Notes: generated from the sequence alone by a model not told the origin. A stretch of 64,000 bases of DNA from Candidatus Omnitrophota bacterium (GCA_003141835.1 PLNR01000006.1:142558-206557); one strand, 5' to 3'; shown: positions 7,873-30,758, counted from the stretch's first letter. Numbers and translations: made by a program.

Positions 7873-8313
7873 TTATTTTTTCCTTAATGTCCTTAGAGCC
7901 CATACGATGAAACGGATCAGCAATAATACCAGGTAAACGATGAGGACTTTTAAAACAAAGAATTTGCCGAAAAATGAGATGAATAATTTATACCAATAAA
8001 CCGCCGTGGAATTAACATAACGCGATCCTTTTAAACCGGATTTAATATGAGCCGTATCCGTAAATTCCTTTATCCGTTTTTCAATAAGTTTTGGCGGCGG
8101 GTTAAGGGCGTCTTCAATGACCTCATTAGAATTATAACCATTGCGGATCTCCGGATATACCTTTATTGTGTATGTTTCCCCGTTAAGGAACTCCAATTTA
8201 TACTTTGGGAATACAACGGGTATTTCGGGGAGGAAGTGCAGGACCGCATATAATACAATGGCTAATCCTATAACTATCAGCCCTTCTTTTGCTATTATTT
8301 TATTGATATTCAT
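7873..8313 (-). CDS. hypothetical membrane protein
   Basis: 146-aa ORF with two hydrophobic segments. AT-rich gene. Confidence 0.35.
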   Translation of the reverse strand: MNINKIIAKEGLIVIGLAIVLYAVLHFLPEIPVVFPKYKLEFLNGETYTIKVYPEIRNGYNSNEVIEDALNPPPKLIEKRIKEFTDTAHIKSGLKGSRYVNSTAVYWYKLFISFFGKFFVLKVLIVYLVLLLIRFIVWALRTLRKK

Positions 8314-8315
8314 TC

Positions 8316-8669
8316 CTATCTATCCACGGGATTATTTACGCTCTCGGTGCTTACGCTGCCTCCATCCGGGCCGTCAGGGTTGTTGACGCTTCCCTCGGCG
8401 GGCGAGTCGATATGCTTTCCCACGGGTTCGGTAGTCGGTTCCGGCGGGAGCGTATTGTCACCTGATTTGCCGATATCCTTATTGTCTTTATTCTCTATTA
8501 CCGGATTATCCGTAGCTTCCGGAGTATCTGCAGTTTCAGGATTATCGACGTTTTCTTGTGTTCCCGGATTATCGTTGGTGGTATCTGAATATTCACCTTC
8601 CGCGTAAGCGCAGCAAGTTGCAAATAACACGATCCCGATCAAGCTGATGAATAATTTTCTAATCTTCAT
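8316..8669 (-). CDS. secreted acidic low-complexity protein with (D/N)NP repeats
   Basis: Signal peptide then NDNPGT, VDNPET, TDNPVI, VNNPDG, VNNPVD. Confidence 0.4.
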   Translation of the reverse strand: MKIRKLFISLIGIVLFATCCAYAEGEYSDTTNDNPGTQENVDNPETADTPEATDNPVIENKDNKDIGKSGDNTLPPEPTTEPVGKHIDSPAEGSVNNPDGPDGGSVSTESVNNPVDR

Positions 8670-8679
8670 TCCCTCTCCT

Positions 8680-9192
8680 TTATGGATGGAATCCTATCTT
8701 CTTCTTTGGCTTTTCTTCCGGCGGCGCCATTAATTCATCAATAAGCTGGTAAATCGTTGTAATATGTCGACCATGTTCTCCAAGTATTTTACCATGTTCT
8801 TTTACCTGTTGCGCAAGTTCTTTATTTTCAGCTAACATTTCTCTTAACCTAACAAATACTCGCATTATTATGATATTTACCCGAATTGCTCTATCACTAT
8901 TTAAAACGCTCGAGAGCATAGCAACCCCTTGCTCTGTAAAAGCATTGAAATTGTATCTTCTGCCGCCCCATCTTGAGGTCGCAAATTGCGACCTCAAGTT
9001 CGTAACTTCTTGTCTTGTAAGAAGAAACATGAAATCAGCTGGAAATCTCTTTAGATTCCTTTTAACTTGTTCATTCGGCCTCTTCGTTGATACTCCGTAC
9101 AGCTGTGCAAGATCTTTATCAAACATCACCTTTTTACCCCTGATAATAAAGATCTTCTGCCGCACAACATCCTGCTCAACCAGATTTGACAT
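8680..9192 (-). CDS. ORF6N-domain DNA-binding protein (antirepressor-related)
   Basis: N-terminal IRGKKVMFDKDLAQLYGVSTKRPNEQVKRNLKRFPADFMF...RWGGRRYNFNAFTEQGVAMLSSVL matches the ORF6N/KilA-N-like family. RBS AAGGAGGG 6 nt upstream. Confidence 0.6.
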   Translation of the reverse strand: MSNLVEQDVVRQKIFIIRGKKVMFDKDLAQLYGVSTKRPNEQVKRNLKRFPADFMFLLTRQEVTNLRSQFATSRWGGRRYNFNAFTEQGVAMLSSVLNSDRAIRVNIIIMRVFVRLREMLAENKELAQQVKEHGKILGEHGRHITTIYQLIDELMAPPEEKPKKKIGFHP

Positions 9193-9199
9193 AAAAAAT

Positions 9200-9250
9200 C
9201 CCTCCTTTAGCTGTATAGACGCTAAAAGGAGGGATTTTCTTTCAACTATT
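9200..9250. repeat. about 50-bp hairpin repeat, copy A (hairpin with TATAGACG loop plus 18-bp tail GATTTTCTTTCAACTATT)
   Basis: The tail 9233-9250 is identical to 17693-17710, and the loop TATAGACGC is shared. On the minus strand it reads as stem-loop plus T-run plus RBS. It overlaps the SIMPL stop codon. Confidence 0.6.
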
Positions 9251-9998
9251 CCGTTATCGCAAAATCCGCATGGACGACCGCGAAGACCTTCTTCTCGAGC
9301 GATGAGGTGTCGTTACTGCCCCAGTCCGAGACCTCGGTCGAATTGACCGGCGTTATCTGGAAGACGCCCATATCCGCCGAGCGTATCCTGCCGACCTTGT
9401 TGCCGGACGCCGAGGCGATCCGTTCGGCCCGTTTCTTCGCGTCCGCGGAGGCCGCGCCGAGCATCTCGAGCTTCAGCTCGGCCAGCTTGGTGTAAAAATA
9501 CTGCGGCGGGTACGAAACGAACCGTATATCCTGCTCGATGAGCCCGGTCGATTCGCGCGACACGGCGGTTATCTTGGCGACGTCAGCCGAGCGCACTTCT
9601 ATCACCTGGCTGAGGTCGTAGGCCTCGATCTCGTTGGTGGCGATGCCCTTCTCGTTCTTCTTGTAGATGACTGTCGTCACCACCTGCGAAACGATCATCT
9701 CGCCCTCGGTTATCCCCTTGGACGCGAGGTAAGCCCTGACCTTGGCCGTGTCCTCTTTTAATTTGGCGAACGCGTCCTTCATCTGTGGGTCCCGCGCCGA
9801 GAACTCGGCCGTCCAGACCGCGTAATCCGATGTTATCCTCTTCTCGGCGGAGCCGGTTACGTTTATCACCTCGGCCGAGGCCTTCTTGAACTTCACCATC
9901 CCGTTGGTCAATATCACCGCGGAACCGATCGCCGCCACTACAAAACATATCCCCAAGATCACTATCTGCGCATTACGCAGGAAACCGTACTTCTCCAT
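9246..9998 (-). CDS. SIMPL-domain (DUF541) periplasmic protein
   Basis: 250 aa, N-terminal TM/signal segment, overall SIMPL-like architecture. Confidence 0.55.
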   Translation of the reverse strand: MEKYGFLRNAQIVILGICFVVAAIGSAVILTNGMVKFKKASAEVINVTGSAEKRITSDYAVWTAEFSARDPQMKDAFAKLKEDTAKVRAYLASKGITEGEMIVSQVVTTVIYKKNEKGIATNEIEAYDLSQVIEVRSADVAKITAVSRESTGLIEQDIRFVSYPPQYFYTKLAELKLEMLGAASADAKKRAERIASASGNKVGRIRSADMGVFQITPVNSTEVSDWGSNDTSSLEKKVFAVVHADFAITE

Positions 9999-10070
9999 CT
10001 CTCTCCCCTTTACATCTTTTTATTCCCGTTTTATCTTTACCGCTTGCCCGGCATCATTGTTTGATCTTCA

Positions 10071-10421
10071 TCACCTCCCCCATGCTATACCGGTGCAAAC
10101 AAAATCACGCAATCTTATATTCTCTTTTACAGGCACAGCCTCAAGTTTAATAGTAAAACCGACATAACGCAAGACCTTTTCCAGCGTCTCCATACTGCTG
10201 AATTCACCATTCTCGATCTTCGATATATGTTGTTGGGTAACACTGATCTTCTTCGCCAGTTGTCCCTGCGTGAGTTTGTGGTCGATGCGGTAGCGGATGA
10301 TGGGTATAACAATCTTTAATTTTTGCTGGCTTATCTCCCACCGCTTCCTGAAATCCGGATTTTTCTTCAGCTCCTCGATATGCTCATTAACACTCATTCC
10401 TAAATGAATATTTCTTTTCAT
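10071..10421 (-). CDS. HTH XRE-family antitoxin (HigA-like)
   Basis: LTQGQLAKKISVTQQHISKIENGE helix-turn-helix. Overlaps the upstream toxin gene by 4 nt. Confidence 0.65.
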   Translation of the reverse strand: MKRNIHLGMSVNEHIEELKKNPDFRKRWEISQQKLKIVIPIIRYRIDHKLTQGQLAKKISVTQQHISKIENGEFSSMETLEKVLRYVGFTIKLEAVPVKENIRLRDFVCTGIAWGR

Positions 10422-10816
10422 ATTCCCTCCCTTTGGCTACTAATAGATATCTTACGTCTTTGTCTGGCCAATGAAATTTCTTTAAGTGGCATTTTTGCGC
10501 TCTTCTTGACAAACGCGTTTGTCATAATGGCTCTGTTCTCCCAAAAGAAATATAATATTCTGATTGTGCCAGCTTCGCTTTGAAATCTTAATTCGAATAT
10601 ATCATCGCCGATATATTTTGAATACGGTTGTTTTAACTCCCTTCCTAATTCTTCGAGCAATCTTTGAATATAAGCAAATTTATCCTGTGTTTTTGATTCA
10701 AACGACTCTATGAATTCCTTTACCGGCATCCTTCCTGAACTTAAACTGTAATAGAAACAGTTAAATCTTCCCACTCTCGCCTCCTTAACTTTACAACCAT
10801 TTAGTTGTATTGTCAA
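10418..10816 (-). CDS. RelE/ParE-superfamily toxin (HigB / Gp49-like). True start possibly the internal Met (MPVKEF...).
   Basis: IFELRFQSEAGTIRILYFFWENRAIMTNAFVKKSAKMPLKEISLARQR matches addiction-module killer proteins. It sits upstream of the XRE antitoxin. Confidence 0.6.
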   Translation of the reverse strand: MTIQLNGCKVKEARVGRFNCFYYSLSSGRMPVKEFIESFESKTQDKFAYIQRLLEELGRELKQPYSKYIGDDIFELRFQSEAGTIRILYFFWENRAIMTNAFVKKSAKMPLKEISLARQRRKISISSQREGI

Positions 10817-10908
10817 TACGTCTTTTTACTGCCCTTATTGTAATAGACGTATAAAGAAGGCATTTTCTTTCAAAATTATTTTTATAAGGGCGTGGATGGA
10901 GGACTGCC

Positions 10909-12120
10909 CTAAACTTGGTATTCTTCGCCGTCAGTTAGGATTTTGACGTTCTGGAATAGTTTGGGATATCTCTCGGCTTCAAAGGTATGGATGGGGATAA
11001 GGACGCGGGGATTAAGGGCCTTGGCGAAGGCCTGGAGGTCCTCGATGATAGCGTGGCCGCTGGTATGTACCGGCTCGATTATCAGACCCTCGCGCTCACA
11101 ATATGCTTTGAATTCATCGGTCAGATATCCCTGCCACATCGAATAAATTATCTTGGCGCCGCGCGCGCCATCGAGTTCCTTCACCGCGATCGGGAAAAAG
11201 GAATTATCGCGCGCCAGCATAAGTATCCTGTTTTTCATGCGGGCGATCTCGAATAGATCGATCTTTCGCTTGTTATAGACAAAAAGCAAATCCCTGTACC
11301 CGGCGCTTTCTAAACATTTGGCATGGTACCCAAGGAATTTTACCCTGATATTCTTCCAATTAAACTGCGGTATATTTTTAGACACCTTTCTCAGCTTATC
11401 CAATATAAACGCGGTATAAAGGTCTATCACGAATACCGAATCCGTCTTCAAGCATGCCCTGTAAGCCGAAACGATCCTGTCGATGTTCTGGGACGAGGCA
11501 AATAGAAAGGTGATCTCCTTCCTCTCTTCCAATATCCGGGCGATCCGCGCCTCGACCTCTTTCTCGTCTTTATACTCCTGCGCGCCCCTGCCGAGCATCG
11601 AGCCCTCCATTATCAGGCAATCAATATCCTTCGGCGGGGCTTCTAACATCATCTTGAATAACGCGCTCTTCCTCCCGTGGCCGCGGAAATCGCCGGAATA
11701 GAATATCCTCTTGCCTTCGCCCTCCACAAGGAAAGTAAGCGCGTCAAACGCGGAATGGTCGACCTGATACGGCGTCACCGTCATGTCCCCAACGACAAAA
11801 GGCTTTTTTGGCTTTACGATGCGCGTGTTTATCTTGCCGGTCTTGTTCGGCGTGAATATATTGGACACCTCTATCAGCTCTTTTGCCCCCTGGCTCATAT
11901 AAACGGGGATATCCGGATGGATGTGGCCCAGCAAGCCATAATGGTCCATGTGGGAATGTGAGATAAGTACGGCATCCGGGAGGATTTTGGGATAGGATGG
12001 CTTTTCGATCTCTTCGTCCAGCGGCTGGCCGAAATCTATCAGGAGCCGCGTTTTATCTGTCTTTAACTCGACGCAGCTACCGCCGATTTCCTGAGTGCCG
12101 CGGTGGATTGTTACTTGCAC
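10909..12120 (-). CDS. MBL-fold metallo-hydrolase (possible nuclease)
   Basis: HSHMDHYG metallo-beta-lactamase motif near the N-terminus, 403 aa. Start overlaps the upstream gene by 1 nt. Confidence 0.65.
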   Translation of the reverse strand: MQVTIHRGTQEIGGSCVELKTDKTRLLIDFGQPLDEEIEKPSYPKILPDAVLISHSHMDHYGLLGHIHPDIPVYMSQGAKELIEVSNIFTPNKTGKINTRIVKPKKPFVVGDMTVTPYQVDHSAFDALTFLVEGEGKRIFYSGDFRGHGRKSALFKMMLEAPPKDIDCLIMEGSMLGRGAQEYKDEKEVEARIARILEERKEITFLFASSQNIDRIVSAYRACLKTDSVFVIDLYTAFILDKLRKVSKNIPQFNWKNIRVKFLGYHAKCLESAGYRDLLFVYNKRKIDLFEIARMKNRILMLARDNSFFPIAVKELDGARGAKIIYSMWQGYLTDEFKAYCEREGLIIEPVHTSGHAIIEDLQAFAKALNPRVLIPIHTFEAERYPKLFQNVKILTDGEEYQV

Positions 12121-12965
12121 TATTTAATCCTGCTAAAATCAATCTCGTTTTTTATATGTAATATTTTTATCTCGGGATGCTTTTTCTTAAGCCCATTTAT
12201 GCTCTGCTCAGCCAAACCTGAATACCCCCCAACGACAACAATTCCCAAAACACCTTCGACAATATCGATCTCCAAACCGTCTGGCAACAGCCCGAGTCCC
12301 CGCTTCTGTAATGCATTCTTTACGTAACACTCCTTATACTGCTGAAAGTTCTTTGTAATACGCTCAATATAGCCGCTAAGTTGCGTAAAGACCTCTTCCT
12401 TCAATTCCAAATTATTTCCCAGCTTAACTTCCAAGACGCAGAACTGATATTTGCCTGCATTATTCCTCTTGAGCGCAAGAAGATCCATCTTAGTAGAGCT
12501 GTCCCGGTCAACAACCTGCCGGTCGATTATTATCAAATCATCTCTGTTAGAATTGTCGGTCAAGATCATTTGCTCGAAAACGATCTCCTCTTGAAACTGA
12601 ACTTCTTTAACCTTTTGTCCCATCAATAATAAATTTCTCGTGCTAAAAAAGGAATGCAATTTCTTATGCCCAACGGTGAATAAATAGTACTCCTTCTCCA
12701 TAGCGTTCTTGAACCGTTTAACCGCAGGGCCCATACCTTCTACAAATTTACGATGGATTCTGATTTCGTACAGATTTTTTGACTTACGGTAGGATATTTT
12801 CCCAAGGCTGTTGCCTTTATAATAAAGATTTAGGTAATCGTCGCGTATCTGCAAACCATACTCAAAACCAGATTGCTTGATCTTATTAATCAAGAAGTCG
12901 AAATCCCTCTTCACGGCCTCGTATGTTTCCTGAGATAGATATCGGCTTATAACTTTATTTTTCAT
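12120..12965 (-). CDS. hypothetical protein with PD-(D/E)XK-like signature (candidate nuclease)
   Basis: 281 aa, AT-rich. MDLLAL...CVLEVK fits a D-x(n)-E-x-K pattern. Unrelated to anything I recognise. Confidence 0.4.
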   Translation of the reverse strand: MKNKVISRYLSQETYEAVKRDFDFLINKIKQSGFEYGLQIRDDYLNLYYKGNSLGKISYRKSKNLYEIRIHRKFVEGMGPAVKRFKNAMEKEYYLFTVGHKKLHSFFSTRNLLLMGQKVKEVQFQEEIVFEQMILTDNSNRDDLIIIDRQVVDRDSSTKMDLLALKRNNAGKYQFCVLEVKLGNNLELKEEVFTQLSGYIERITKNFQQYKECYVKNALQKRGLGLLPDGLEIDIVEGVLGIVVVGGYSGLAEQSINGLKKKHPEIKILHIKNEIDFSRIK

Positions 12966-12992
12966 TTTAGGTTTCCTGCGAACCTTTTATTT

Positions 12993-13053
12993 GGGGACAC
13001 TCTGCAGCCTGTCCCTTTTTGACACGCCCCTATTACCTACTATTACCTATTAC
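12993..13053. repeat. island repeat unit U1 (GGGGACAC...TGTCCCTTTTTGACACGCCCC plus TATTACC tandem)
   Basis: Shares the core GGGGMSKTKTCAAAAAGGGACA (reverse orientation) with U2, U3 and the helicase-gene element. It sits between the Dam-like MTase stop and the 281-aa gene start. Confidence 0.5.
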
Positions 13054-13101
13054 TTCTTCGTGATTTTGCCTTTTTTACGCCCATAAAATAGCAACCTTAG
13101 G

Positions 13102-13989
13102 TTATACAAATAATGTAAAACAATGTTTATTTTTGATTTTGGGTAAGATACAATTCTCGCTGGATATTAATAATTCCTTACCGATGCTAGCTTTATGAAT
13201 AGAATATCTTATTTTAAGATTATTCCGCTGAACGCCTTTGTAAATATTCTTAATAAATGCTATGTTATCATATGAAAGAACCCATTTTAGATCGCTATTT
13301 TCTTTCAAATAATTGCTTAGTCTTTCGTGTTCTTGGGCCTCCATGTAATATTTATATAAATCTCTTCCCTTTTGATAATACGGAGGATCCAAATATATTA
13401 AATAATTTGATTTATCAGGACTTTTTAACGCTAAGTAAGTTTTTAAAAAATCGACTCCATCCTTATTAAATAGCTCAATTTTACTTTTATATTTTGATAT
13501 CAGTTCGATTCTTTTAATTAAATTTATTTTATTAAACCTTGCGTCAATCTTCCATTCGCCATCCTGCTTCATGCCACCTACTGGACCTGACGATAGTATT
13601 CCAGAACGGTTGCAACGATTTAGATAGAAGCTAGCAAACCCAACATCAATATCTGAACCATGTTTTATAAATTCTTTGTCCTTCAATAAATCTCTTTGTA
13701 TTTTCCACTCGCTAATTTTAACAGGTGTAGAAATTACGCGCGCAATAAAACCATCTGTTTGATTTAAAACTGCTTTCCAGAATTTATATATTCGTTCATC
13801 CAAATCGTTAAGTACGATTTTGTCAACGAACCCTTTCGTCAACAAATTTAAAGCTGCGCCAGCTCCTCCAGCAAAAGGTTCAATATACGCTACGTTGACT
13901 AATTCATTGCTTTGGATCACTTTATTTAAATATTTCCACAAAGCTGTTTTTCCGCCGGGGTATCTCAAGGGACTTATATGATTATCCAT
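13102..13989 (-). CDS. DNA adenine methyltransferase, Dam-like (alpha class)
   Basis: EPFAGGAGAALN (motif I) near the N-terminus and YLDPPYY (motif IV, DPPY) in the C-terminal half. AT-rich. Confidence 0.8.
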   Translation of the reverse strand: MDNHISPLRYPGGKTALWKYLNKVIQSNELVNVAYIEPFAGGAGAALNLLTKGFVDKIVLNDLDERIYKFWKAVLNQTDGFIARVISTPVKISEWKIQRDLLKDKEFIKHGSDIDVGFASFYLNRCNRSGILSSGPVGGMKQDGEWKIDARFNKINLIKRIELISKYKSKIELFNKDGVDFLKTYLALKSPDKSNYLIYLDPPYYQKGRDLYKYYMEAQEHERLSNYLKENSDLKWVLSYDNIAFIKNIYKGVQRNNLKIRYSIHKASIGKELLISSENCILPKIKNKHCFTLFV

Positions 13990-15374
13990 TATTCGTTCTT
14001 TTTTAGAACATGTCTCAAATATTCAGATAATTTTTTCCACTTATCTGAAAGCACTGTTCTGTCAGGTATATAACTAGCGTTATGTACGAAAGAGTTCAAA
14101 TCGTCCAATATTGGTTCTTTTCCTTTAAAATCGACATATTTTTTAAGCGCTTTCTTAATTTGCGGATCCATCGCTATATCATTTTCACTAAGCCAAAGTA
14201 GCATTCCCTTAAGTGAGGGCCACGTATCTGGTAAACTTTTCCCGCTTTTTAACTTAGTTTCATCGCGGTTTTTATATTTTTTTAATTCCCCGCTTCTCTC
14301 CATGTAAATATACGTGCCCAATTCTACTAATAGTCTAAAAGTTACCGCATGGGCATTTGGATATGTTTTAGGGTTGAGCCCGTGCAGTTCTCTAAATATA
14401 TCTTTGATTCGCTCATTATTGATTTCACATATAATCGCATCTGGGATAATCGACTTAAACTGAAGTGTTTTAGGTATTTGGTTTTTTATGGCGGATTTTT
14501 TGAAATCTCCAGGATTTGAAAGATAATCTTCTATTGCATCTGCTGTACTTAAATTTCTTGAATTGACTTCTTTATTGGCAATATCCTCAACAATCTGTTT
14601 TAACTTTATATCAGTCTTTTTCTCATTTTCTATAAACTCAATATTTCCATTATCGTTGTAAGTAACTTTTAGATAATCTTTACCTGGCTTGCTTTGAACA
14701 ACTCTATCTAGGGTAGTAAATTCAAATTTTTCTTTTTCGTTTCCGTTTTCTAGACTTAATAATTGATCTTTAATTTTTTTCGAAATAGGTAGTTTGTGTG
14801 CTCTCTGAATGAAGTTGTAACTTACAATTAATTTTTTTATTTTATTAGCTTTGACACCAACGGATAGCGATAAATTATTGATTGTTTCTCCATCTCTAAT
14901 ACGCCGGTAATAAAATATGGCTTGATTTATCGGCAGCCACTTTTTAATAGGTATTTCTGTATGTCTACCTGCAATAATATAATCAGCATCTTTCCTGCTT
15001 GGAGCAAGTACCCCGTTTATTTTTTTAATACTACCTGATTTAGCATTTTTTGCAATTGCCTTAAATCGTTTTTGGTACTTATCAGGTGCGATGCTGGGAT
15101 TCAAAAGAAGCTTGCATGCTGCAAGCCGCCTATTTCCTTCTAATACATATAGTTTTCCTTCTATATCACAAACTATTATAACCTCTGTTGGTAAAAAACC
15201 TCTTTCTGCTATTCTTAACGATAGATCTATAATATTCTCATATTTAATTAGCTCTTCAAGAATGTTTTCTTCTGATAACTCTTCTAAATTAGCAAATCGC
15301 GGGTTTTCAGGGTCTAGTAACAAATTCTCTACATCATACTTATCTATCTTCCAATCCGAATAATTTGTTGGCAT
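13989..15374 (-). CDS. ParB N-terminal (ParB/Srx nuclease-like) domain protein, 461 aa
   Basis: LYVLEGNRRLAACKLLLN matches the ParB GxRR box. Long lysine-rich C-terminal region of unknown function. Its stop overlaps the MTase start (13989). Confidence 0.6.
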   Translation of the reverse strand: MPTNYSDWKIDKYDVENLLLDPENPRFANLEELSEENILEELIKYENIIDLSLRIAERGFLPTEVIIVCDIEGKLYVLEGNRRLAACKLLLNPSIAPDKYQKRFKAIAKNAKSGSIKKINGVLAPSRKDADYIIAGRHTEIPIKKWLPINQAIFYYRRIRDGETINNLSLSVGVKANKIKKLIVSYNFIQRAHKLPISKKIKDQLLSLENGNEKEKFEFTTLDRVVQSKPGKDYLKVTYNDNGNIEFIENEKKTDIKLKQIVEDIANKEVNSRNLSTADAIEDYLSNPGDFKKSAIKNQIPKTLQFKSIIPDAIICEINNERIKDIFRELHGLNPKTYPNAHAVTFRLLVELGTYIYMERSGELKKYKNRDETKLKSGKSLPDTWPSLKGMLLWLSENDIAMDPQIKKALKKYVDFKGKEPILDDLNSFVHNASYIPDRTVLSDKWKKLSEYLRHVLKKNE

Positions 15375-15427
15375 TTAAACCTCCTCAAGTAATAAAATAT
15401 CTTCCGCCCTTATTTGAAATTTAACTA

Positions 15428-15500
15428 GGGGGACGCATACCTTATGACACTGTGCAACCTGTCCCTTTTTGAAGAGTCCTCTATTCTACTTCTATTATTT
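15428..15500. repeat. island repeat unit U2
   Basis: GACACTGTGCAACCTGTCCCTTTTTGAAGAG...CTATTCTACTTCTATTATTT is collinear with U1. Confidence 0.45.
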
Positions 15501-15514
15501 GCTATGGGAACTTC

Positions 15515-15575
15515 GGGGACGTGTCATTTTGGGGCACCCTGCAATCTATTTCTTTTTGACACGTCACTAATATTT
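15515..15575. repeat. island repeat unit U3 (bounded by 9-bp inverted repeat GACGTGTCA / TGACACGTC)
   Basis: GGGGACGTGTCATTTTGGGGCACCCTGCAATCTATTTCTTTTTGACACGTCAC. Confidence 0.45.
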
Positions 15576-15619
15576 TGAATTGATCTGCTCAGAGCTTATC
15601 TAGATTGGAGTATTAGTAA

Positions 15620-16561
15620 TCAAATGCCTTTCAAAAGCTTAGAAAATCCTGCGGTATTAACGAAATAATTGCTCTTATTCTTTTTAAGATATTTATATAT
15701 ATCTTTTTTTGCTTTTGACATCTTATTGTCTGTTGATGCTTCAATTAGTTCGTTAAACATAATTCCATCCAAAAATGCTACATACGAAACATTTTTGTCT
15801 GTGTATTTCAATAAATCCACTATTTCTACAATTGCACCGTATTGCCCTCCACCGCCACCTTTTTTATGTTTATGCTCAACAACATACATATTAGGCCCTT
15901 TTTGAATATAACAATCTGGCATCTTACCTTGTTTTGATTTACTCCATTCAAATTTAATATTACGTTTGTTACAAATGTCTTTAAAATATTTTTTCTCTCC
16001 TTTATCAGGCAATAAATAAAACGAATCCTTTTTGATATCATCGCTTCTTTTATATCTTTTGAAACCTTCCCGCTCAACAAGCATAATAATCTTATTTGCT
16101 CCTGTTGAGCCCCCTCTTTTATGCGAATAATTGTCAGATAGTACTTGTAAAACAATATTAGAATATCCATGAGATGAATACATCGAATGCCTATCCTTAA
16201 TATATTTAATTAACAATTCCCGTAGTAATTTTTTTCTTTCTTGTTCTTTTTCGGCACGCAGTACAGAATATGGCATATCCCATACCATTAAATATTGCGA
16301 GAATGCCGTATAATTCATATGATGTATTTTGAATAATATTGAATCAATCTCCCTGATAATTTCATCATCCTGCTTCTTGGTGAGCTTACCATCCAAAGTA
16401 TGGTACGTTGTTATTAGATCAATTAACCTTTCATTGCTATTAATAATCTTGTTTTTATCTTTTGCGTTTTTCGTTATTACAATAATTTCTTTTTTATTAG
16501 CATCATCAAAAATCTGCTCTCTATTCTTTAACGAGTATTCGAATAAGAGGATGTTGTCCAT
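15620..16561 (-). CDS. hypothetical protein; candidate restriction endonuclease partner of the adjacent MTase
   Basis: 313 aa, AT-rich, no recognisable motifs. Overlaps the upstream NPPY methyltransferase gene by 34 nt. Confidence 0.35.
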   Translation of the reverse strand: MDNILLFEYSLKNREQIFDDANKKEIIVITKNAKDKNKIINSNERLIDLITTYHTLDGKLTKKQDDEIIREIDSILFKIHHMNYTAFSQYLMVWDMPYSVLRAEKEQERKKLLRELLIKYIKDRHSMYSSHGYSNIVLQVLSDNYSHKRGGSTGANKIIMLVEREGFKRYKRSDDIKKDSFYLLPDKGEKKYFKDICNKRNIKFEWSKSKQGKMPDCYIQKGPNMYVVEHKHKKGGGGGQYGAIVEIVDLLKYTDKNVSYVAFLDGIMFNELIEASTDNKMSKAKKDIYKYLKKNKSNYFVNTAGFSKLLKGI

Positions 16562-17613
16562 AATAATTCTTCTCCATAAATATTATTATACGCATTTTCG
16601 AGTATGGCCCTTGCAGTTTCATAATCTAGGCGCCTTCTTCTGCAACCATTTTTCATATTTCCTTTAAAGGGCGACAAAAGCACATCATTCGTTTTGTCTC
16701 TATAATCTGTAAGAATGTTATTGCATTTCTCCAAAAACAATTCTAGCTTATCATGCTTTAATTTATCCAATTTAATTATTGTTATTAGCCTAGAGCTTAT
16801 CTTAATCCCCTTTAAATCATAATCAAGTTCTTCCTTTTTCATGAATTTTATCATGGATTTAGGATTTGTTGTGTCGACCGCTCTTAAGGCAATATTTCCA
16901 CTAGTATCATTAAAAAATATCCTAAGGTATTTTGCGGGCCTTAATCTCAATTTTTCATAATAGTCCAGATTATTTAAATATTTATCATTTTTATACACCT
17001 TGATTTCCGAATATTCTTTTGCTCTGCCATCAAAGCAAAGAACACATACCGGCGTCTCTGTATCATCAAAACAATTTTCTTCTATTATAGTAATCGAATT
17101 TAATCGATATTTATGCTTAAAATTACTATTTATGAAAGTCTCTGGAACAATTGCTACAACGTATTCTTGCGCTTGCAGCATTTTTTCAAGTGCAATTAAA
17201 TATAAATCGCCATATTCAGAACTAATAAAATAATTTTCAGTACTATCATAGATACCTTTTCTTTTAGCACTATAATTACTTAGGTAGGGCGGATTTGTAA
17301 TTATTATGGCATTTTTTCTTGTGGGAATTTTTAATAAACTATCATTCACTGGGAAATTCTTTTTAGAGTCTATGTCCAAACCAAACGCTTTGGTAATTCC
17401 GAAATTATCGGAGAGTTTTAACAAATCGCCGTCTCCAGCATATGGATCATAAATCTCACTACAACCGCTGGATATCACGAATTCTTTAATATGAGTTTTT
17501 AGCCATTTATCTTTTTTAGTAAAATATTGTCCTAATATTTTTTGGTTCATATAATGCCTCTGACAATATTGCGTTTTTTCGTCTCTAACATGGACTTTTA
17601 TCTCGCTTGTCAT
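16528..17613 (-). CDS. N6-adenine (or N4-cytosine) DNA methyltransferase, gamma-class order (motif I then NPPY)
   Basis: DPYAGDGDLL (SAM-binding) followed about 40 residues later by IIITNPPY. Confidence 0.7.
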   Translation of the reverse strand: MTSEIKVHVRDEKTQYCQRHYMNQKILGQYFTKKDKWLKTHIKEFVISSGCSEIYDPYAGDGDLLKLSDNFGITKAFGLDIDSKKNFPVNDSLLKIPTRKNAIIITNPPYLSNYSAKRKGIYDSTENYFISSEYGDLYLIALEKMLQAQEYVVAIVPETFINSNFKHKYRLNSITIIEENCFDDTETPVCVLCFDGRAKEYSEIKVYKNDKYLNNLDYYEKLRLRPAKYLRIFFNDTSGNIALRAVDTTNPKSMIKFMKKEELDYDLKGIKISSRLITIIKLDKLKHDKLELFLEKCNNILTDYRDKTNDVLLSPFKGNMKNGCRRRRLDYETARAILENAYNNIYGEELLWTTSSYSNTR

Positions 17614-17661
17614 GTGTATTTTAACACCTCCCTATTCATGCGTCAATGCAAGGTTTCTTTG

Positions 17662-17710
17662 CTTCCTTACCTATATAGACGCAAGTTAGGAAGATTTTCT
17701 TTCAACTATT
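17662..17710. repeat. about 50-bp hairpin repeat, copy B (partner of 9200-9250)
   Basis: CTTCCTTACCTATATAGACGCAAGTTAGGAAGATTTTCTTTCAACTATT. Identical 18-bp tail and TATAGACGC loop. Confidence 0.6.
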
Positions 17711-17764
17711 TTTTAGAGTTTCCCCTATAACTCCTCACCTTTCATCGGCGTTGCACTCGGGTCC

Positions 17765-17992
17765 CTAATAATTAAAAATATCTTTAATAGCAAAATTATC
17801 TTCCGGCTTTAGCGCGCGAAGGGCATTCAGAATCTTATGTTGGATATTAAGGGTTAATCGCCTTCCCTTGCGCCCCTTTTGCACCATCTTATGCGACAAC
17901 TGCTCAGTGGAAATCTTAACAAGGTCAGAGTTTGAAAAACCTAGCCGCACCATGATCCTGTCAAGCGGCTGGATGCCTAATTCTTCCTTCAT
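17765..17992 (-). CDS. small hypothetical protein (75 aa), basic, possibly DNA-binding
   Basis: Its ATG overlaps the TGA of the upstream NYN gene (ATGA). Flanked by a roughly 30-bp direct repeat. Confidence 0.35.
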   Translation of the reverse strand: MKEELGIQPLDRIMVRLGFSNSDLVKISTEQLSHKMVQKGRKGRRLTLNIQHKILNALRALKPEDNFAIKDIFNY

Positions 17993-18360
17993 ATTTTACT
18001 CCAAAACTCCTCGCATTTCATCGGCGTTGCACGCGCATCCTTCGCATAAAAATACAGCGAGCGGTCGGAGGAGACGACACGCAGGTTGCGGCGCTGGCGC
18101 GGCGGGATCTGGTCGATGTGTTTCTTTATGTAAGAGTCGGCGTTCCGGGCCGCGACGATATGCAGTTTCGCCGTGCTCCTGTTCGGTATATCGAGATATT
18201 CATTCTTGCTGTCGAATACAAGGGTGATGGGGTCGGCGTGGGTCTCCTGGAACTTCTCCAGGATAGCGATCAGGTGCATGGCGCCGGCCAGGGCGTCGTC
18301 ATGATCTATCCCTGAGCCTTCGTGGCGGACCATGTTCCAACCGTCTATAAGTATAGGCAT
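17989..18360 (-). CDS. NYN/PIN-like (YacP-like) domain protein
   Basis: N-terminal ILIDGWNMV and acidic residues are typical of YacP/NYN nucleases. Confidence 0.5.
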   Translation of the reverse strand: MPILIDGWNMVRHEGSGIDHDDALAGAMHLIAILEKFQETHADPITLVFDSKNEYLDIPNRSTAKLHIVAARNADSYIKKHIDQIPPRQRRNLRVVSSDRSLYFYAKDARATPMKCEEFWSKI

Positions 18361-18373
18361 GGCTCCCTAGCAC

Positions 18374-19516
18374 CTAAACCTTTTCGTGGCTAAATTGGCG
18401 CAGATAATCACTGTACATAAACTTGCGATTGCGCTCTTTTCCGGTTATTTCATATAATATGTCTGCCTTAACAAACTTTTCTATCAACTGAAGGATATTC
18501 GCTTTAGAGGATATTCCGGTAATCCGCGAGGCAATCCCTGAATCTACTATAGGGGTTGAATATAGTTTGTTTAACAGTTTTAAGGCTGTTGCGGAATTTC
18601 TGCCCATGCCGGAAACCTTCCTGATGTGCTCCTCCCTTAATTTTGTGATCTTTTGGGCAGTTATCACGGCTTCCTCAGAAACTTCGCGTACGCCTACAAG
18701 AAAATATTTTAGCCAATCTTCTATACCTTTATTAAACCTATATCCGTTTAATTTATCGTAATAATTTGTACGGTGTTTTTTAAAATACTCCGAAATATAC
18801 AAAAGTGGCCGGGACAGCACCTGTTCTTTGTAAAGATAAAAAGTAATCAAGAGTCTCCCCATCCTTCCGTTACCGTCAAGGAACGGATGGATGGTTTCAA
18901 ATTGAGCGTGTATAATGCCGGCTTTTATTAAAGGCGGAAGTTTCGTGGTTTCATCGTGCAAGAACTTTTCCAGATCAGACAAAGATTCATGCATTTGGTG
19001 AGCGGGCGGAGGAACAAAAAAAGCTGTTTCTATAGTAGGGCCTCCTATCCAATTTTGGGAAGTCCTGAATTCCCCCGGATTTCTGTGCTGCCCACGCACT
19101 CCTTTAAGCAAGGCGGAATGCATTTCTCTTATCAAACGCCAGGAGAGAGGAAAGGTCTTTAGCCTTTCTATGCCATGATCCATTGCGGTTATGTAGTTTT
19201 TTATCTCATCGACATCCGAAGGGGAATCCTTATCCTTTAGTTTCGCCTCCGCTTTTATGTAATCGATGAATGTCGCCTGAGTACCTTCTATCTGGCTTGA
19301 TAACGCGGCTTCTTTCGTAACGTACATGTAGATAAAGAAATTAACGTCGGGGACAAGCTGGTCTATGGCATTGAGACTACCTATAGCGCGATCTGCCTTT
19401 GAGAGAAGCATGATTAAATTGTCATCCCAGTTTATGAGATGCTCAGGTGGAAATTTTGCCGGTATAAACGCCTTGTAACCTGTAGGTTGCTGTTGATAAA
19501 AACCTATTTTTCCCAT
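18374..19516 (-). CDS. Fic family protein (probable AMPylase) with C-terminal winged-helix
   Basis: Canonical Fic motif HPFLDGNGRMGR within a 380-aa ORF. Confidence 0.85.
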   Translation of the reverse strand: MGKIGFYQQQPTGYKAFIPAKFPPEHLINWDDNLIMLLSKADRAIGSLNAIDQLVPDVNFFIYMYVTKEAALSSQIEGTQATFIDYIKAEAKLKDKDSPSDVDEIKNYITAMDHGIERLKTFPLSWRLIREMHSALLKGVRGQHRNPGEFRTSQNWIGGPTIETAFFVPPPAHQMHESLSDLEKFLHDETTKLPPLIKAGIIHAQFETIHPFLDGNGRMGRLLITFYLYKEQVLSRPLLYISEYFKKHRTNYYDKLNGYRFNKGIEDWLKYFLVGVREVSEEAVITAQKITKLREEHIRKVSGMGRNSATALKLLNKLYSTPIVDSGIASRITGISSKANILQLIEKFVKADILYEITGKERNRKFMYSDYLRQFSHEKV

Positions 19517-23155: not shown

Positions 23156-23160
23156 ATATA

Positions 23161-23207
23161 GGGTGTCCCCCACTGAGGTGGGACCTTGCCCCAATGGGAC
23201 GTCCCCC
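23161..23207. repeat. REP-like element copy 2 (split by a 19-bp internal insert)
   Basis: GGGTGTCCCCC / ACTGAGGTGGGACCTTGCC / CCAATGGGACGTCCCCC. Confidence 0.6.
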
Positions 23208-23215
23208 AGGAAAAA

Positions 23216-23896
23216 ATGCGCATACTTGTAGTCGAAGACGAAAAAAAGATAGCAAATTTCATAAAACGCGGCCTGAAGGAAGAGGGCTACGCTGTCGACG
23301 CGGCTGAAGACGGCGAGCAGGGATATTTTATGGCCACAACGCAGGATTACGACCTCATCGTCCTCGACCTGATGCTGCCGAAGATGGATGGCCTCACCCT
23401 TTGCAGGAAGTTGCACGAAATGGGGTGTCCCCCAATGGGACGTCCCCCAGTATTGATACTCACGGCCAAGGACACGGTAAAAGACAAGGTCTCCGGCCTC
23501 GACTCCGGCGCGGACGATTACATCACCAAGCCGTTCGCTTTCGAGGAGTTCCTGGCGCGGGTGCGGGCGCTTTTGCGCAAACGCGAAGGCAGTGCGTCGA
23601 CGAAACTCACGGCCGGCGAACTCACGCTCGACCTCGTCACGCACAAGGTATCGCGCGGCGGCAAAGAGATCGAGCTTACGGCCAAGGAATACGCGCTCCT
23701 TGAATATTTCATGCGCAACGCCGGCACGTGCGTCACCAGGACGATGATATCCGAGCACGTCTGGGACATGAATTTCGATAGTTTTACAAACGTCATAGAC
23801 GTCTATGTGAACTATCTACGAAAAAAACTGGACAACGGCCCCGGCAAAAAACTCATCCAGACCGTCCGCGGCAGGGGTTATATCCTCAAAGGTTAA
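23216..23896 (+). CDS. OmpR-family response regulator
   Basis: Receiver domain (VVEDE, D..LDLMLP, LTAKD) plus winged-helix effector (LTAKEYALLEYF...RTVRGRGY). Confidence 0.85.
   Translation: MRILVVEDEKKIANFIKRGLKEEGYAVDAAEDGEQGYFMATTQDYDLIVLDLMLPKMDGLTLCRKLHEMGCPPMGRPPVLILTAKDTVKDKVSGLDSGADDYITKPFAFEEFLARVRALLRKREGSASTKLTAGELTLDLVTHKVSRGGKEIELTAKEYALLEYFMRNAGTCVTRTMISEHVWDMNFDSFTNVIDVYVNYLRKKLDNGPGKKLIQTVRGRGYILKG
23422..23448. repeat. REP-like element copy 3, inside the response-regulator CDS (encodes GCPPMGRPP in frame)
   Basis: GGGGTGTCCCCCAATGGGACGTCCCCC. Confidence 0.7.
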
Positions 23897-26451: not shown

Positions 26452-26466
26452 GTTTTCCTCCGGAAT

Positions 26467-26493
26467 GGGGTGTCCCCCAATGGGACGTCCCCT
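26467..26493. repeat. REP-like element copy 4 (intergenic)
   Basis: GGGGTGTCCCCCAATGGGACGTCCCC, between the OsmC start and the YhaM-like stop. Confidence 0.7.
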
Positions 26494-27433
26494 AGGTTTT
26501 TTTGAGAAGATATTTGCGGCCTTTGAGGCTTACATACGAGGACCAGACCTTGTCTCCGCCGGACTGCTGGACGATGATCTCCTTGACCGCGTTCGCCTGC
26601 GAGACGAGCTCGTCGGCCTGGTAGACGATCGTCGCCTCGAGCGTCTTCGGGAGTATCGGCGACTGCTGTTCGTATTCGCCGTGGTGGCTTAAGATGATAT
26701 GCTTGAGGCGCAGGGCGAGGTCCTTCGGGAAGTTCTTGATATTTTTTATCTTCTCGGAGACCATCTCGTAGCCGAGCGTCAGGTGGCCGATCAGCCCGCC
26801 GTCGACCGTGTATTCGAAGGTGCTGATGTCGAGCTCGACGGTCTTGCCGATGTCGTGGGCGAACGCGCCGATCATCACGATGTCGCGGTCGGCGTCGGGA
26901 TAAAGGTCGCAGACCACGCCGCTGATGCGCATCACCTCGTACGTGTGCTCCATCAGCCCGCCGATGTAGGCGTTGTGCCAATTCTGGGCGCCGGGCGATT
27001 TTTTGAATTTCGCCATCAGTTCGTCATCGGAGAGGAACTCCTTCGCCAGCGCCGCGAGCCATTTTTCGGAGATCCCGTCAAGTGCCTCTTTGATATTCTT
27101 GAATATCTCTTCGGGCTTTTCGACGGAGCGGACGAGCTCCTCGAATTTGTATTCTTTCGGCTCGGCAAGGCGTATCTGGTCGACGCGTATCTGCAGGTCG
27201 CCCTTGAATGAATCGACGCGGCCGTTGACGAAGACCGCTTCGCCTGTCGCGACCATTTCGTCGGCGGCCCCGGCATTCTCCCAGACCTTCGCTTCCATCC
27301 GGCCGGTCTTATCCGAGAGCGTTAATTTAAGGAACGGCTTTCCGCCTTGCGTGAGCGCAAGTTCTTTCTTCTTGAGGAAATACACGTCCTCGATCGTATC
27401 GTTTGTCTTGAGGTTTTTTATGAATTTAGGCAT
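26492..27433 (-). CDS. OB-fold + HD-domain phosphohydrolase (YhaM-like 3'-5' exoribonuclease family)
   Basis: N-terminal OB-fold region then an HD-domain motif (FAHDIGK...H...D). Confidence 0.6.
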   Translation of the reverse strand: MPKFIKNLKTNDTIEDVYFLKKKELALTQGGKPFLKLTLSDKTGRMEAKVWENAGAADEMVATGEAVFVNGRVDSFKGDLQIRVDQIRLAEPKEYKFEELVRSVEKPEEIFKNIKEALDGISEKWLAALAKEFLSDDELMAKFKKSPGAQNWHNAYIGGLMEHTYEVMRISGVVCDLYPDADRDIVMIGAFAHDIGKTVELDISTFEYTVDGGLIGHLTLGYEMVSEKIKNIKNFPKDLALRLKHIILSHHGEYEQQSPILPKTLEATIVYQADELVSQANAVKEIIVQQSGGDKVWSSYVSLKGRKYLLKKT

Positions 27434-29024: not shown

Positions 29025-30758
29025 CTACCAGCCCCCGCCTCCCCCTCCGCCGCCGCCACCTCCCCCGCCTCCCCCTCCGCCGCTGAAACCGGAGCTTGAA
29101 CCCGGAGCGACCGAAGAAGAAGATATGGAACTTGCGAGCGAACCTCCTAATGACGAAAAACCGGTGATGCCTCCGAACCTCGTTACGCCGATACCCGGCC
29201 CTCTATACCAAACCGGCGAGTATCCTTCGCCTCCCGTACCGGCGCGCGATAACACATCGGTGAATTTTTTCGCCCAGGCGTTCTCCAGGTCGAGCGCGAC
29301 AGCGTACGGCAGGTATTTCTCGAAAAGTTCCGGCGTCTTCGCCGGCGCGGCCATGCCTGCTATCTCGTCCTTTTCCGCCGTGCGGAGGTACATTCCGAAA
29401 CCTTCTATCTGGTCCATGACGGTCCTGCCTGCAAGCGTCGGCGCCTTAAGCAGCTGGTAGAAGATAAAATTAAGCGCGGCGAGAATAATAGATGATGCGA
29501 AAGTGCTTAAAGTATCCATGGACGATAATAACGCGACGGAGAGGATGGTAATAATAGATATCACCATGCCGGGGACAAAATATTGCGCGTTGGTCAGGAA
29601 ATATGTCTTCTCGAACTCCGTCTTTAGGGTATCCTTGAGCGAATCTATCGCCCCCGCTACTTCATCGTGATTGGCGTTCTCGAATTTGAAGTACTTCCGC
29701 TCCCCCATAAGCTCATCGGCTATGACCTTTTCTTCCGGGCTTAAGTTCGACGGATCCGCGGGACCGCGGTCTACGGAATAAGTTCCGTCCTCTTCAATTA
29801 TGGTGAAATACCTTTTGACCGCCATATTTATTACTGCCGAGGAGAAACACTTGGCATCATAACCCATATTTTTTATATAACGGATCGCGGACGGAGATAC
29901 GCCTTTCGGCGGCGCAAATAACGGGATTATGGTCCCTTTCGGCGGATTTTTGCCGAAGAGAGCCCAGGTAATGATGAAGTAAACAAAAAGCACGACGACA
30001 CCCAGCGCGCCGGCAGCCAAGCCGGGATTATCACTCAGGAAATACATCCATTTCTCCCGGGCGGTCAGCTCATGCACAAAACCTTTCGGCCAACCGACCA
30101 CGATCGTTAAGCCCTCGCGGGGGGCAAGCGGCCGTGTCGTCACAAAAACCGGCCTGCCCTCATTATCGAAGGATACATTAGAATCTTTCGCGTGCGAACC
30201 TAGCGGCCCGGTGTATTCATCTGTCTTTATCACGTCCCGGGCGATCCCCGCAGGGAGGACCACGGTCGCGGACGCGTTGAGGATCGGGAAATCCCACCCG
30301 TTACCCGTGACATTCCAATAGAGTTCATCGTGGTCCTTGAAAAATCCCAGCTGGCGGTTGGTGTCATATTTTATCGTATATGTATGGACTCCGGGCTGGA
30401 CATAAGTATTTTCGTTGCCTATGTAGACCCTTTCCCCGTTCGAGAGCGCGGCAGTATGATACGGCTCGGGCGTCCCGTCGCGCAGGACCTCTTTCACAGT
30501 AAAACCTACGGAATACCGGAGCGAGGTGCCGTTTTTGTAGATCGTATATTTTGTCGGGAAATCGCGGTATATGCCGTGCCTTATCCGGTAATTCTCGGCG
30601 TTTACCTTTATAGCCTCGATCACCGACATCGTCGAGTCCTGATGTACGGTAATGAGGCTGTCAAAGGAGAGTATGCTTTCGGAGGCACGGGAAACAGGCA
30701 AAGCAAAAAGGATAGCTATGAGGAAGAATACCGCGAAAAGGGATCTTTTCCCAAACAT
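29025..30758 (-). CDS. DUF2207-family membrane protein with C-terminal poly-glycine tail
   Basis: Signal peptide, large extracytoplasmic domain, TM region, then a run of about 17 Gly ending in W. LemA gene adjacent. Confidence 0.6.
   Translation of the reverse strand: MFGKRSLFAVFFLIAILFALPVSRASESILSFDSLITVHQDSTMSVIEAIKVNAENYRIRHGIYRDFPTKYTIYKNGTSLRYSVGFTVKEVLRDGTPEPYHTAALSNGERVYIGNENTYVQPGVHTYTIKYDTNRQLGFFKDHDELYWNVTGNGWDFPILNASATVVLPAGIARDVIKTDEYTGPLGSHAKDSNVSFDNEGRPVFVTTRPLAPREGLTIVVGWPKGFVHELTAREKWMYFLSDNPGLAAGALGVVVLFVYFIITWALFGKNPPKGTIIPLFAPPKGVSPSAIRYIKNMGYDAKCFSSAVINMAVKRYFTIIEEDGTYSVDRGPADPSNLSPEEKVIADELMGERKYFKFENANHDEVAGAIDSLKDTLKTEFEKTYFLTNAQYFVPGMVISIITILSVALLSSMDTLSTFASSIILAALNFIFYQLLKAPTLAGRTVMDQIEGFGMYLRTAEKDEIAGMAAPAKTPELFEKYLPYAVALDLENAWAKKFTDVLSRAGTGGEGYSPVWYRGPGIGVTRFGGITGFSSLGGSLASSISSSSVAPGSSSGFSGGGGGGGGGGGGGGGGGW

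Follow-up and report, generated by a model that had tools for sequence, protein, structure and literature searches.

A recurrent two-block element in Candidatus Omnitrophota with the form of an ECF-type promoter and a probable link to a conserved sigma factor

Genes and repeat copies at the locus

A stretch of 64,000 nucleotides (nt) from Candidatus Omnitrophota bacterium (GCA_003141835.1, PLNR01000006.1:142558-206557), here called the window, contains a short element that recurs in one orientation just upstream of gene starts. Every plausible gene between 2.8 and 19.5 kb lies on the minus strand. On the plus strand, the 18-mer GATTTTCTTTCAACTATT is found exactly at 9233-9250 and at 17693-17710, and 10 bases before it, in both copies, lies the 9-base loop TATAGACGC, which is likewise exact (9214-9222 and 17674-17682). 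Dinucleotide shuffles gave an expectation of 0.06 matches to the 18-mer even with up to three mismatches, which bears out what a first-pass annotation of this DNA had reported, namely an exact 18-mer accompanied by the same loop at two sites. Both of these copies exist, but a third one in the same register at 10830-10878, recovered by pattern search and by a repeat finder, had been missed. The genome, described in that annotation as GC-rich, measures about 52% GC, and the block at 12-18 kb 31-41%.

Read on the minus strand, each copy takes the form TTGAAAGAAAAT-N12-CGTCTAT and stands just upstream of a gene start. The core motif of copy 1 (9215..9245, minus strand), identified by pattern match and by its invariant blocks in the alignment, comprises a -35-like TGAAAG (9244-9239) and a -10-like CGTCTA (9221-9216). 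It precedes a gene with an ORF6N domain (8680..9192, minus strand; Pfam ORF6N, 1.6e-34), whose ATG begins 22 nt past CGTCTAT with the ribosome-binding site AAGGAGGG in between; the site had first been placed after the last gene of the block, but a position upstream of the ORF6N gene is the better description. On its other side, the SIMPL-domain gene (9246..9998, minus strand; Pfam SIMPL, 4.6e-24) ends with a TAG stop codon (9248-9246) that falls inside the 18-mer and directly abuts TTGAAAG. Copy 3 (TTGAAAGAAAATGCCTTCTTTATACGTCTAT; 10843..10873, minus strand) precedes a pair of genes encoding a Gp49 (HigB-like) toxin and an HTH antitoxin (10071..10816, minus strand; Pfam Gp49, 2e-23, and HTH_3, 4.8e-11). 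Copy 2 (TTGAAAGAAAATCTTCCTAACTTGCGTCTAT; 17675..17705, minus strand) precedes a gene for an Eco57I-like DNA methylase (16528..17613, minus strand; Pfam Eco57I, 2.4e-06), which heads a low-GC restriction-modification block. Between the outer copies lie genes for SIMPL, HTH, Gp49, an MBL-fold protein, a D12 methylase and proteins of unknown function.

A position weight matrix (PWM) built only from loci ascertained through a sigma factor protein (see below), and thus independent of the window copies, recovered exactly these three sites, with scores of 39.3 bits for copy 2, 38.9 for copy 3 and 26.7 for copy 1. The next best site in the window scored 12.8 bits, and the best site per shuffled window did not exceed 5.2 bits (10 shuffles). 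A near-match to the 18-mer at 13296-13313, within the gene for the D12 methylase, has no CGTCTAT and reaches 9.8 bits; it was treated as a chance occurrence. The window DNA is 78-91% identical to several Omnitrophota contigs, both in the putative island and in the host-like flanks, and therefore comes from the Omnitrophota lineage. A site orthologous to copy 3 stands upstream of the same toxin-antitoxin pair in contig L039. Contigs L015 and L008 have sites orthologous to copy 2, in which the two blocks are kept and the spacers differ; the region of copy 2 and the methylase gene has 91% DNA identity to L015, where the arrangement is the same.

Two conserved blocks at a fixed distance

In a MAFFT alignment of 15 regions upstream of anti-sigma-like genes (see below) and the three window copies, the only invariant columns were TGAAAGAAAA and CGTCTAT, separated by 13 ungapped and unconserved nt. 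Copies 1 and 2 agree at 2 of 10 spacer positions but exactly in the blocks and in the distance between them. Outside the sites picked by the search pattern, TGAAAG and CGTCTA were found 9 times at a spacing of 17 nt and at most once at each other spacing from 12 to 22 nt. It is these two blocks, both unpaired in the hairpin that had been proposed, that all copies have in common.

All three window copies and nearly all others precede a gene that runs in their own direction. Often only 15-25 nt separate CGTCTAT from the start codon, leaving no room for another promoter. Moreover, a canonical terminator (a stem of 8-12 pairs followed by a T-run) directly abuts TTGAAAG in 7 of 109 non-redundant copies, compared with 15 of 3000 random positions. 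At these seven loci transcription must begin inside the element, and at several of them the start codon is within about 22 nt. Likewise, the stop codon of the SIMPL gene adjoining TTGAAAG of copy 1 leaves no place for a dedicated upstream promoter.

Taken from these sequence features, the repeated element is very probably a promoter read on the minus strand rather than the scar of an island. Its consensus would be TTGAAAGAA(A/T)(A/T)T-N12-CGTCTAT, i.e., TGAAAG, 17 nt and CGTCTA, an architecture like that of promoters for extracytoplasmic function (ECF, group 4) sigma factors. The bipartite motif, the 17-nt spacing and a second block with CGTC, which is a hallmark of ECF -10 elements, are present in all copies; the one deviation is the AAG of the first block, most ECF -35 blocks having AAC. 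Transcription would start roughly 6-8 nt past CGTCTA, and the three copies would drive the ORF6N gene, the Gp49/HTH toxin-antitoxin pair and the methylase-led restriction-modification block, respectively.

Two other promoter-like readings were set aside. A sigma-70-type promoter does not fit, since every TATA-like hexamer is 20-22 nt away from TTGAAA, too far for a promoter of that type; separate sites of the canonical TTGACA-17-TATAAT-like form stand downstream of copies 2 and 3 and at other loci. The notion of a cruciform or single-stranded-DNA promoter was dropped, as loops of 9-14 nt disfavour extrusion.

Linkage to an ECF sigma factor

In contigs L004, L032, L059 and L046 the gene order is a 190-aa ECF sigma factor, the motif, a gene for a zf-HC2 anti-sigma-like protein of about 180 aa, a motif variant (TTGAAAGAATTT-N12-CGTCTAT) and spoVG. 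The sigma protein matches TIGR02937 (2.6e-21) and the Sigma70_r4_2 and r2 domains; this assignment is to a superfamily model, with no named equivalog. Starting from an alignment of these four sigma proteins, we collected related loci in metagenome contigs with protein similarity as the sole criterion. Among loci with at least 47% identity that extended past the sigma gene, the motif was found 6-135 nt after the sigma gene, between it and the anti-sigma gene, in 29 of 29 cases, and most of these loci had a second copy 500-940 nt further on, before spoVG. The opposite strand of the 29 loci gave a single match to a relaxed pattern (L084). Sigma homologues of up to 31% identity had no motif, and intermediate ones had variants, CGTCCT in L094 (39% identity) and CGTCAT in L095 (32%).

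The order of sigma, zf-HC2 anti-sigma and spoVG is kept in many Omnitrophota-like contigs (L004, 3497-5301; L059, 5370-7618; L063-L091). In L004, spoVG is followed by an ORF6N gene that lacks the motif.

This linkage makes the conserved 190-aa ECF sigma factor the probable cognate reader of the motif, a conclusion we hold somewhat less firmly than that of a promoter as such. The motif could instead be a transcription-factor site near a promoter, or the promoter of some other alternative sigma factor, with its place beside the ECF sigma gene reflecting regulation of that operon. The sigma-to-motif assignment indeed comes from linkage alone, the motif was not found upstream of the sigma gene itself, and the same cluster contains spoVG, a family whose members have been reported to bind nucleic acids. 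The motif is, however, non-palindromic and bipartite, with a 17-nt spacing and the CGTC block typical of ECF -10 elements; in the anti-sigma copies the start codon follows 15-16 nt past it, without room for a separate -10 element, and the overlong distance to a TATA-like hexamer speaks against recognition by a sigma-70-type factor. We therefore regard this alternative as unlikely.

Distribution among genomes

An exact pattern of 19 specified bases was scanned against one genome per species from 185,579 species and matched 61 loci, for a chance expectation of about 4 (estimated under uniform composition). As many as 52 of these loci are in metagenome-assembled genomes (MAGs) labelled Candidatus Omnitrophota/Omnitrophica (39) or "uncultured Planctomycetia" (13), the latter carrying the same gene families as the Omnitrophota loci; the other 9 belong to other taxa. 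Viral contigs scanned with this pattern gave no match and hence no sign of a phage origin. The exact 18-mer is also present in five other MAG contigs, before unrelated genes.

The genes that follow the motif encode RecA, SpoVG, ORF6N and zf-HC2 proteins, an IS200-like transposase, a nucleotidyltransferase and an N6/N4 methylase, and further Bro-N, a tyrosine integrase, a LAGLIDADG endonuclease, a ChlI/ComM-like protein, IlvD and toxin-antitoxin systems. The ORF6N class has 14 non-redundant copies, including the window's own, with the start codon mostly 21-25 nt past the motif, and RecA (Pfam, 6e-140) has five non-redundant species-level copies. As judged from such occurrences, the motif is a predicted promoter class that extends throughout the phylum Omnitrophota. 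Occurrence at many unrelated loci was what the first-pass annotation had itself named as speaking against its suggestion of two copies bracketing an island.

In at least seven MAG contigs labelled Omnitrophota or "Planctomycetia" (L002, L010, L013, L016, L020, L040 and L047), the motif stands 38-61 nt upstream of the recA start, and in L012 it precedes the ChlI/ComM-like gene. These placements hint at a regulon of a DNA-damage- or competence-like response. Two short contigs, L043 (2.1 kb) and L060 (6.4 kb, labelled Gammaproteobacteria and probably mis-binned), have three motif copies each in dense arrays of small cassettes with nucleotidyltransferase, HTH and toxin-antitoxin-like genes, each cassette with its own motif copy. 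Several of these cassettes share the spacer CCCTCCGGGTTA without a complementary downstream arm.

Pairing of the spacer with the ribosome-binding site

The first-pass annotation had taken a hairpin as the feature common to the copies, which did not hold up. Copy 1 folds strongly (9193..9240, minus strand; -25.5 kcal/mol, z -6.83, none of 200 shuffles as good): its spacer CCCTCCTTTTAGC and GCTAAAGGAGGG, which is where the ribosome binds ahead of the ORF6N gene, form a hairpin of 16 pairs with a U6 run after it. On the minus strand this hairpin stands between AGAAAA and UUUUUU; on the plus strand AUUUUCUUUC follows it. In copy 2 the fold is modest (17662..17693, minus strand; CUUCCU.ACUUG / UAGGU.AGGAAG, -9.9 kcal/mol, z -1.95, 9 of 200 shuffles as good); it encloses the CGTCTAT block, and the gene strand shows no U-run after it. 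For copy 3, the fold is no better than in shuffles (-5.1 kcal/mol, z -0.46).

In many copies elsewhere, the spacer is rich in pyrimidines (often CCCTCC or CCTCC) and complements the ribosome-binding region after CGTCTAT, which is rich in purines. Mean energies of the duplex between spacer and downstream sequence were -10.1 kcal/mol for ORF6N genes, -8.5 for spoVG, -8.2 for other genes, -5.5 for recA and -3.6 for anti-sigma genes. A copy's own spacer pairs better than shuffled spacers (mean z -0.88, n = 101 non-anti-sigma copies). Own partners were also better than those of other copies in all five non-anti-sigma classes, the difference reaching significance in two heterogeneous ones (38 and 44 of 3000 permutations); within the recA class it was not significant. 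Of 469 stem pairs, 61 are U-G or G-U and work only on the gene strand. The orthologous sites of window copy 2, L015 and L008 have three different arm pairs, each self-complementary.

Could the whole element then be a generic bidirectional intrinsic terminator, i.e., a hairpin between an A-run and a T-run? Copy 1, with a stem flanked by an A-run and a U-run immediately after the SIMPL stop codon, would suit that view. Conservation, however, lies in the loop (CGTCTAT) and the 5' flank (TTGAAAGAAAAT) and not in the strength of the stem; copy 3 is unfolded relative to shuffles, copy 2 lacks the U-run on the gene strand, and the anti-sigma and recA copies have no hairpin at all. A terminator scan flagged none of the three window copies, whose loops exceed the 8-nt limit of that scan. 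As local genes are all on the minus strand, a plus-strand terminator would also have nothing to terminate. A generic terminator is thus quite improbable. The suggestion of a reused cassette of terminator and ribosome-binding site, made in the first-pass annotation, nevertheless came closest, since copy 1 does combine a ribosome-binding site with a terminator-like hairpin and U-run; it had the wrong strand and overlooked the promoter form.

A further alternative is a cis-regulatory RNA in the 5' leader, for example a hairpin with a conserved loop and 5' tail that responds to a protein or ligand, masks the ribosome-binding site and is transcribed from a promoter further upstream. The 3' arm coincides with the ribosome-binding site in many copies, many U-G pairs of the stem are possible on the gene strand only, the sense strand folds much better than the antisense strand in some copies (e.g., L005, L017 and L007), and the orthologous sites related to copy 2 have different but self-complementary arms. 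Yet there was no Rfam match at E-values up to 1 (8000-19000, both strands), half of the copies have no stem, seven abut a strong upstream terminator, and the SIMPL coding sequence reaches TTGAAAG in copy 1. The exact spacing of the blocks regardless of pairing is a property of promoters and not of RNA. We consider a cis-regulatory RNA distinctly unlikely; the same Rfam result, unpaired conserved bases and unfolded copies argue against the small structured RNA that had also been suggested, at least as the primary function, and so do the abutting terminators, which keep the element from being an inner portion of a longer RNA.

With the element understood as a promoter, the hairpin is secondary and may insulate the gene against read-through transcripts, terminating or silencing them, a tentative proposal to which we give a little less than even weight. 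The hairpin would arise from the frequent complementarity between the promoter spacer and the ribosome-binding site that follows closely. With the 5' arm ahead of the inferred start site, folding would be confined to read-through RNA: RNA arriving from upstream would fold and either terminate at the U-run or have its ribosome-binding site masked, and transcripts initiated at the promoter itself, having no 5' arm, would be translated. Copy 1 and about half of the 101 non-anti-sigma copies would fit this fold-back geometry, with the 5' arm upstream of the inferred start and the 3' arm on the ribosome-binding site. The fold of copy 1 and its U6 would likely serve as the terminator of the SIMPL gene and at the same time mask the ribosome-binding site of the ORF6N gene. 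Lack of pairing in the anti-sigma promoters fits such insulation, because read-through RNA spanning the sigma and anti-sigma genes must also yield the anti-sigma protein.

Taken as a whole, an ECF-type promoter class that has three copies in the window and spans the phylum is likely the best explanation of the element. Several observations weigh against it or against its parts. The -35 block reads AAG, which differs from the AAC of most ECF promoters. The motif precedes the anti-sigma gene and not the sigma gene itself, which is atypical for ECF autoregulation, and a tblastn search did not find the sigma gene in the window. Sigma-70-like promoters follow copy 3 (TTGACA-17-TAAAGT, 10816-10788, minus strand, between the copy and the toxin-antitoxin pair) and copy 2 (TTGACG-17-TAAAAT, 17646-17618, minus strand, between the copy and the methylase gene); both came from a consensus scan and could drive these genes alone. 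The hairpin is the weak part of the proposal: a duplex energy of -7 kcal/mol is attained by no more than about half of the non-anti-sigma copies; CCTCC-like spacers were not associated with GGAGG-like downstream sequence (k-mer test, odds ratio 0.89, p 0.84), and partner permutation was not significant within the spoVG and ORF6N classes. Hairpin strength in relation to a co-directional upstream gene gave a trend only (-8.9 vs -6.75 kcal/mol, p 0.14).

Island borders and recombination

The two outer copies had also been read as att-like scars, that is, attL/attR-like direct repeats or recombination scars at the ends of an inserted 8.4-kb island. An exact 18-mer in the same orientation 8.4 kb apart and the low GC content of the 12-18 kb stretch suit this idea, as does the frequent loss of similarity to relatives exactly at the element or the start codon: L007, for instance, is 88% identical through the SIMPL gene and the element up to the start codon and different thereafter. 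Against it stand the third copy inside the block and the lack of an integrase or recombinase gene between or beside the copies (8.6-19.5 kb). The low-GC region does not match the bracketed interval, the SIMPL and MBL genes being host-like in GC. Furthermore, the identical 18-mer stands before unrelated genes in five other MAG contigs, and the motif precedes core genes at loci found through the sigma protein.

No single-copy empty site was found in the relatives L007, L034, L039, L015 and L008; rather, the element is kept next to different neighbours. In L007, SIMPL and the element are followed by a small toxin-like gene, and in L034 by other DNA. L039 has a copy-3-like site with the same toxin-antitoxin pair and then directly a copy-1-like site with ORF6N, without SIMPL, and L015 has NYN, a copy-2-like site and the methylase gene. 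The conserved bases also do not fit the RYYYAAC/GTTRRRY cores of attC, as read from the sequence. Island borders of the att type are therefore very improbable, and the apparent borders of the window's island would be ordinary regulatory signals instead of integration scars. Since similarity to relatives is often lost at the element or at the start codon, the module may still be used as a recombination patch, though not as an att site: recombination between copies of the conserved 31-60 nt may help to shuffle cassettes.

Next to copy 2, a 53-nt direct repeat (77% identical; 17712-17764 and 17988-18040) flanks an open reading frame of 75 aa (17765-17992) without a Pfam match, and one of its copies constitutes the 3' end of a NYN/YacP-like gene. 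L015 has a single copy of this repeat and lacks the segment of about 240 bp between the repeats, which is present in L008. This locus looks like a small insertion, or like a deletion by recombination between the repeats.

Other repeats in the window

A 54-nt repeat occurs three times (12982-13035, 15432-15485 and 15519-15572; 61-74% identical) in two intergenic gaps of the low-GC restriction-modification block. It holds GGGACA...TGTCCC inverted repeats next to TTTTTGACAC, and these could be operators, e.g., for a controller protein, or terminators of the block. Repeated 35-mers at 23158-23209, 23416-23450 and 26461-26495 contain the palindrome GGGACGTCCC and GGGGTGTCCCC; they border the 23-26 kb stretch in which the AT skew switches sign, and may be binding sites of a regulator. 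A C-rich tandem repeat with a period of 15 nt (CCCCCGCCTCCCCCTCCGCCGCC...), detected by the repeat finder at 29032-29090, probably encodes a low-complexity segment rich in Gly and Pro.

Implications for a little-studied phylum

Omnitrophota are a widespread, largely uncultured and little-studied phylum of very small, possibly host-dependent bacteria. We know of no experimental work on transcription signals in this phylum, and our literature search for Omnitrophota sigma factors, ECF or promoters found no description. Tied to a cluster of sigma, anti-sigma and spoVG genes, the 31-nt two-block motif would be a predictor of regulon membership in MAGs. It also offers a candidate route by which recA could be co-induced with mobile or defence genes, and the element would be a possible natural example of promoter-specific translation.

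In its most far-reaching form, which we regard as speculative and rather unlikely, the proposal would be that recA, spoVG and a comM-like gene belong to one phylum-wide ECF-sigma regulon together with dozens of accessory cassettes, which carry genes for ORF6N/Bro-N proteins, toxin-antitoxin and restriction-modification systems, IS200-like transposases and integrases. A sigma/anti-sigma switch would run this regulon as a stress response of an SOS- or competence-like kind. If this were true, an anti-Shine-Dalgarno spacer built into many of the promoters would let a gene be translated only from transcripts initiated by the sigma factor, with read-through RNA terminated or silenced, and the conserved promoter module would double as a patch of homology for swapping cassettes between islands.

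Comparison with known systems

The element shares with att and attC sites that short repeats in the same orientation are found at the borders of accessory cassettes and that some breakpoints of homology fall at it. It differs from att sites by its three copies in the window, the lack of a recombinase in the block and of an empty site in relatives, and its presence before core genes. Unlike in attC, the conserved bases do not form an imperfect palindrome with R'/R'' cores.

In IS10, "fold-back inhibition" protects the element from outside transcription. In IS200, a terminator at the left end protects against impinging transcription, and a stem-loop sequesters the ribosome-binding site (PMC4513863). 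As in both, the inverted repeat described here has the ribosome-binding site as its 3' arm and a 5' arm that precedes the inferred start of the element's own transcript, so that only read-through RNA would fold; the hairpin of copy 1 with its U-run has the form of a terminator. In contrast to these elements, the 5' arm is the spacer of a promoter and the module is attached to many ordinary and accessory genes instead of a transposase gene; the arrangement is known here from sequence alone, in only about half of the copies.

The closest parallel is with the ECF (group 4) promoters. In Bacillus subtilis, whose ECF factors also include sigma-X, the consensus is TGAAAC-N16-CGTA for sigma-W and TGCAAC-N17-CGTC for sigma-M. 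The motif is likewise bipartite and non-palindromic, with a GAAA(C)-type -35 block, a CGTC-type -10 block and a rigid spacing of 16-17 nt, and, as in ECF systems, it is linked to a pair of a sigma factor and a zf-HC2 anti-sigma factor, with a putative regulon scattered over unrelated genes. It departs from ECF promoters in the -35 block, which ends in AAG rather than AAC, and in its two blocks, which are invariant over an unusual length (10 and 7 nt). It stands before the anti-sigma gene and not, as would be typical of ECF autoregulation, before the sigma gene. A further departure is the mixture in the putative regulon, where recA, spoVG and comM-like genes stand beside those for ORF6N proteins, toxin-antitoxin systems, methylases, transposases and integrases.

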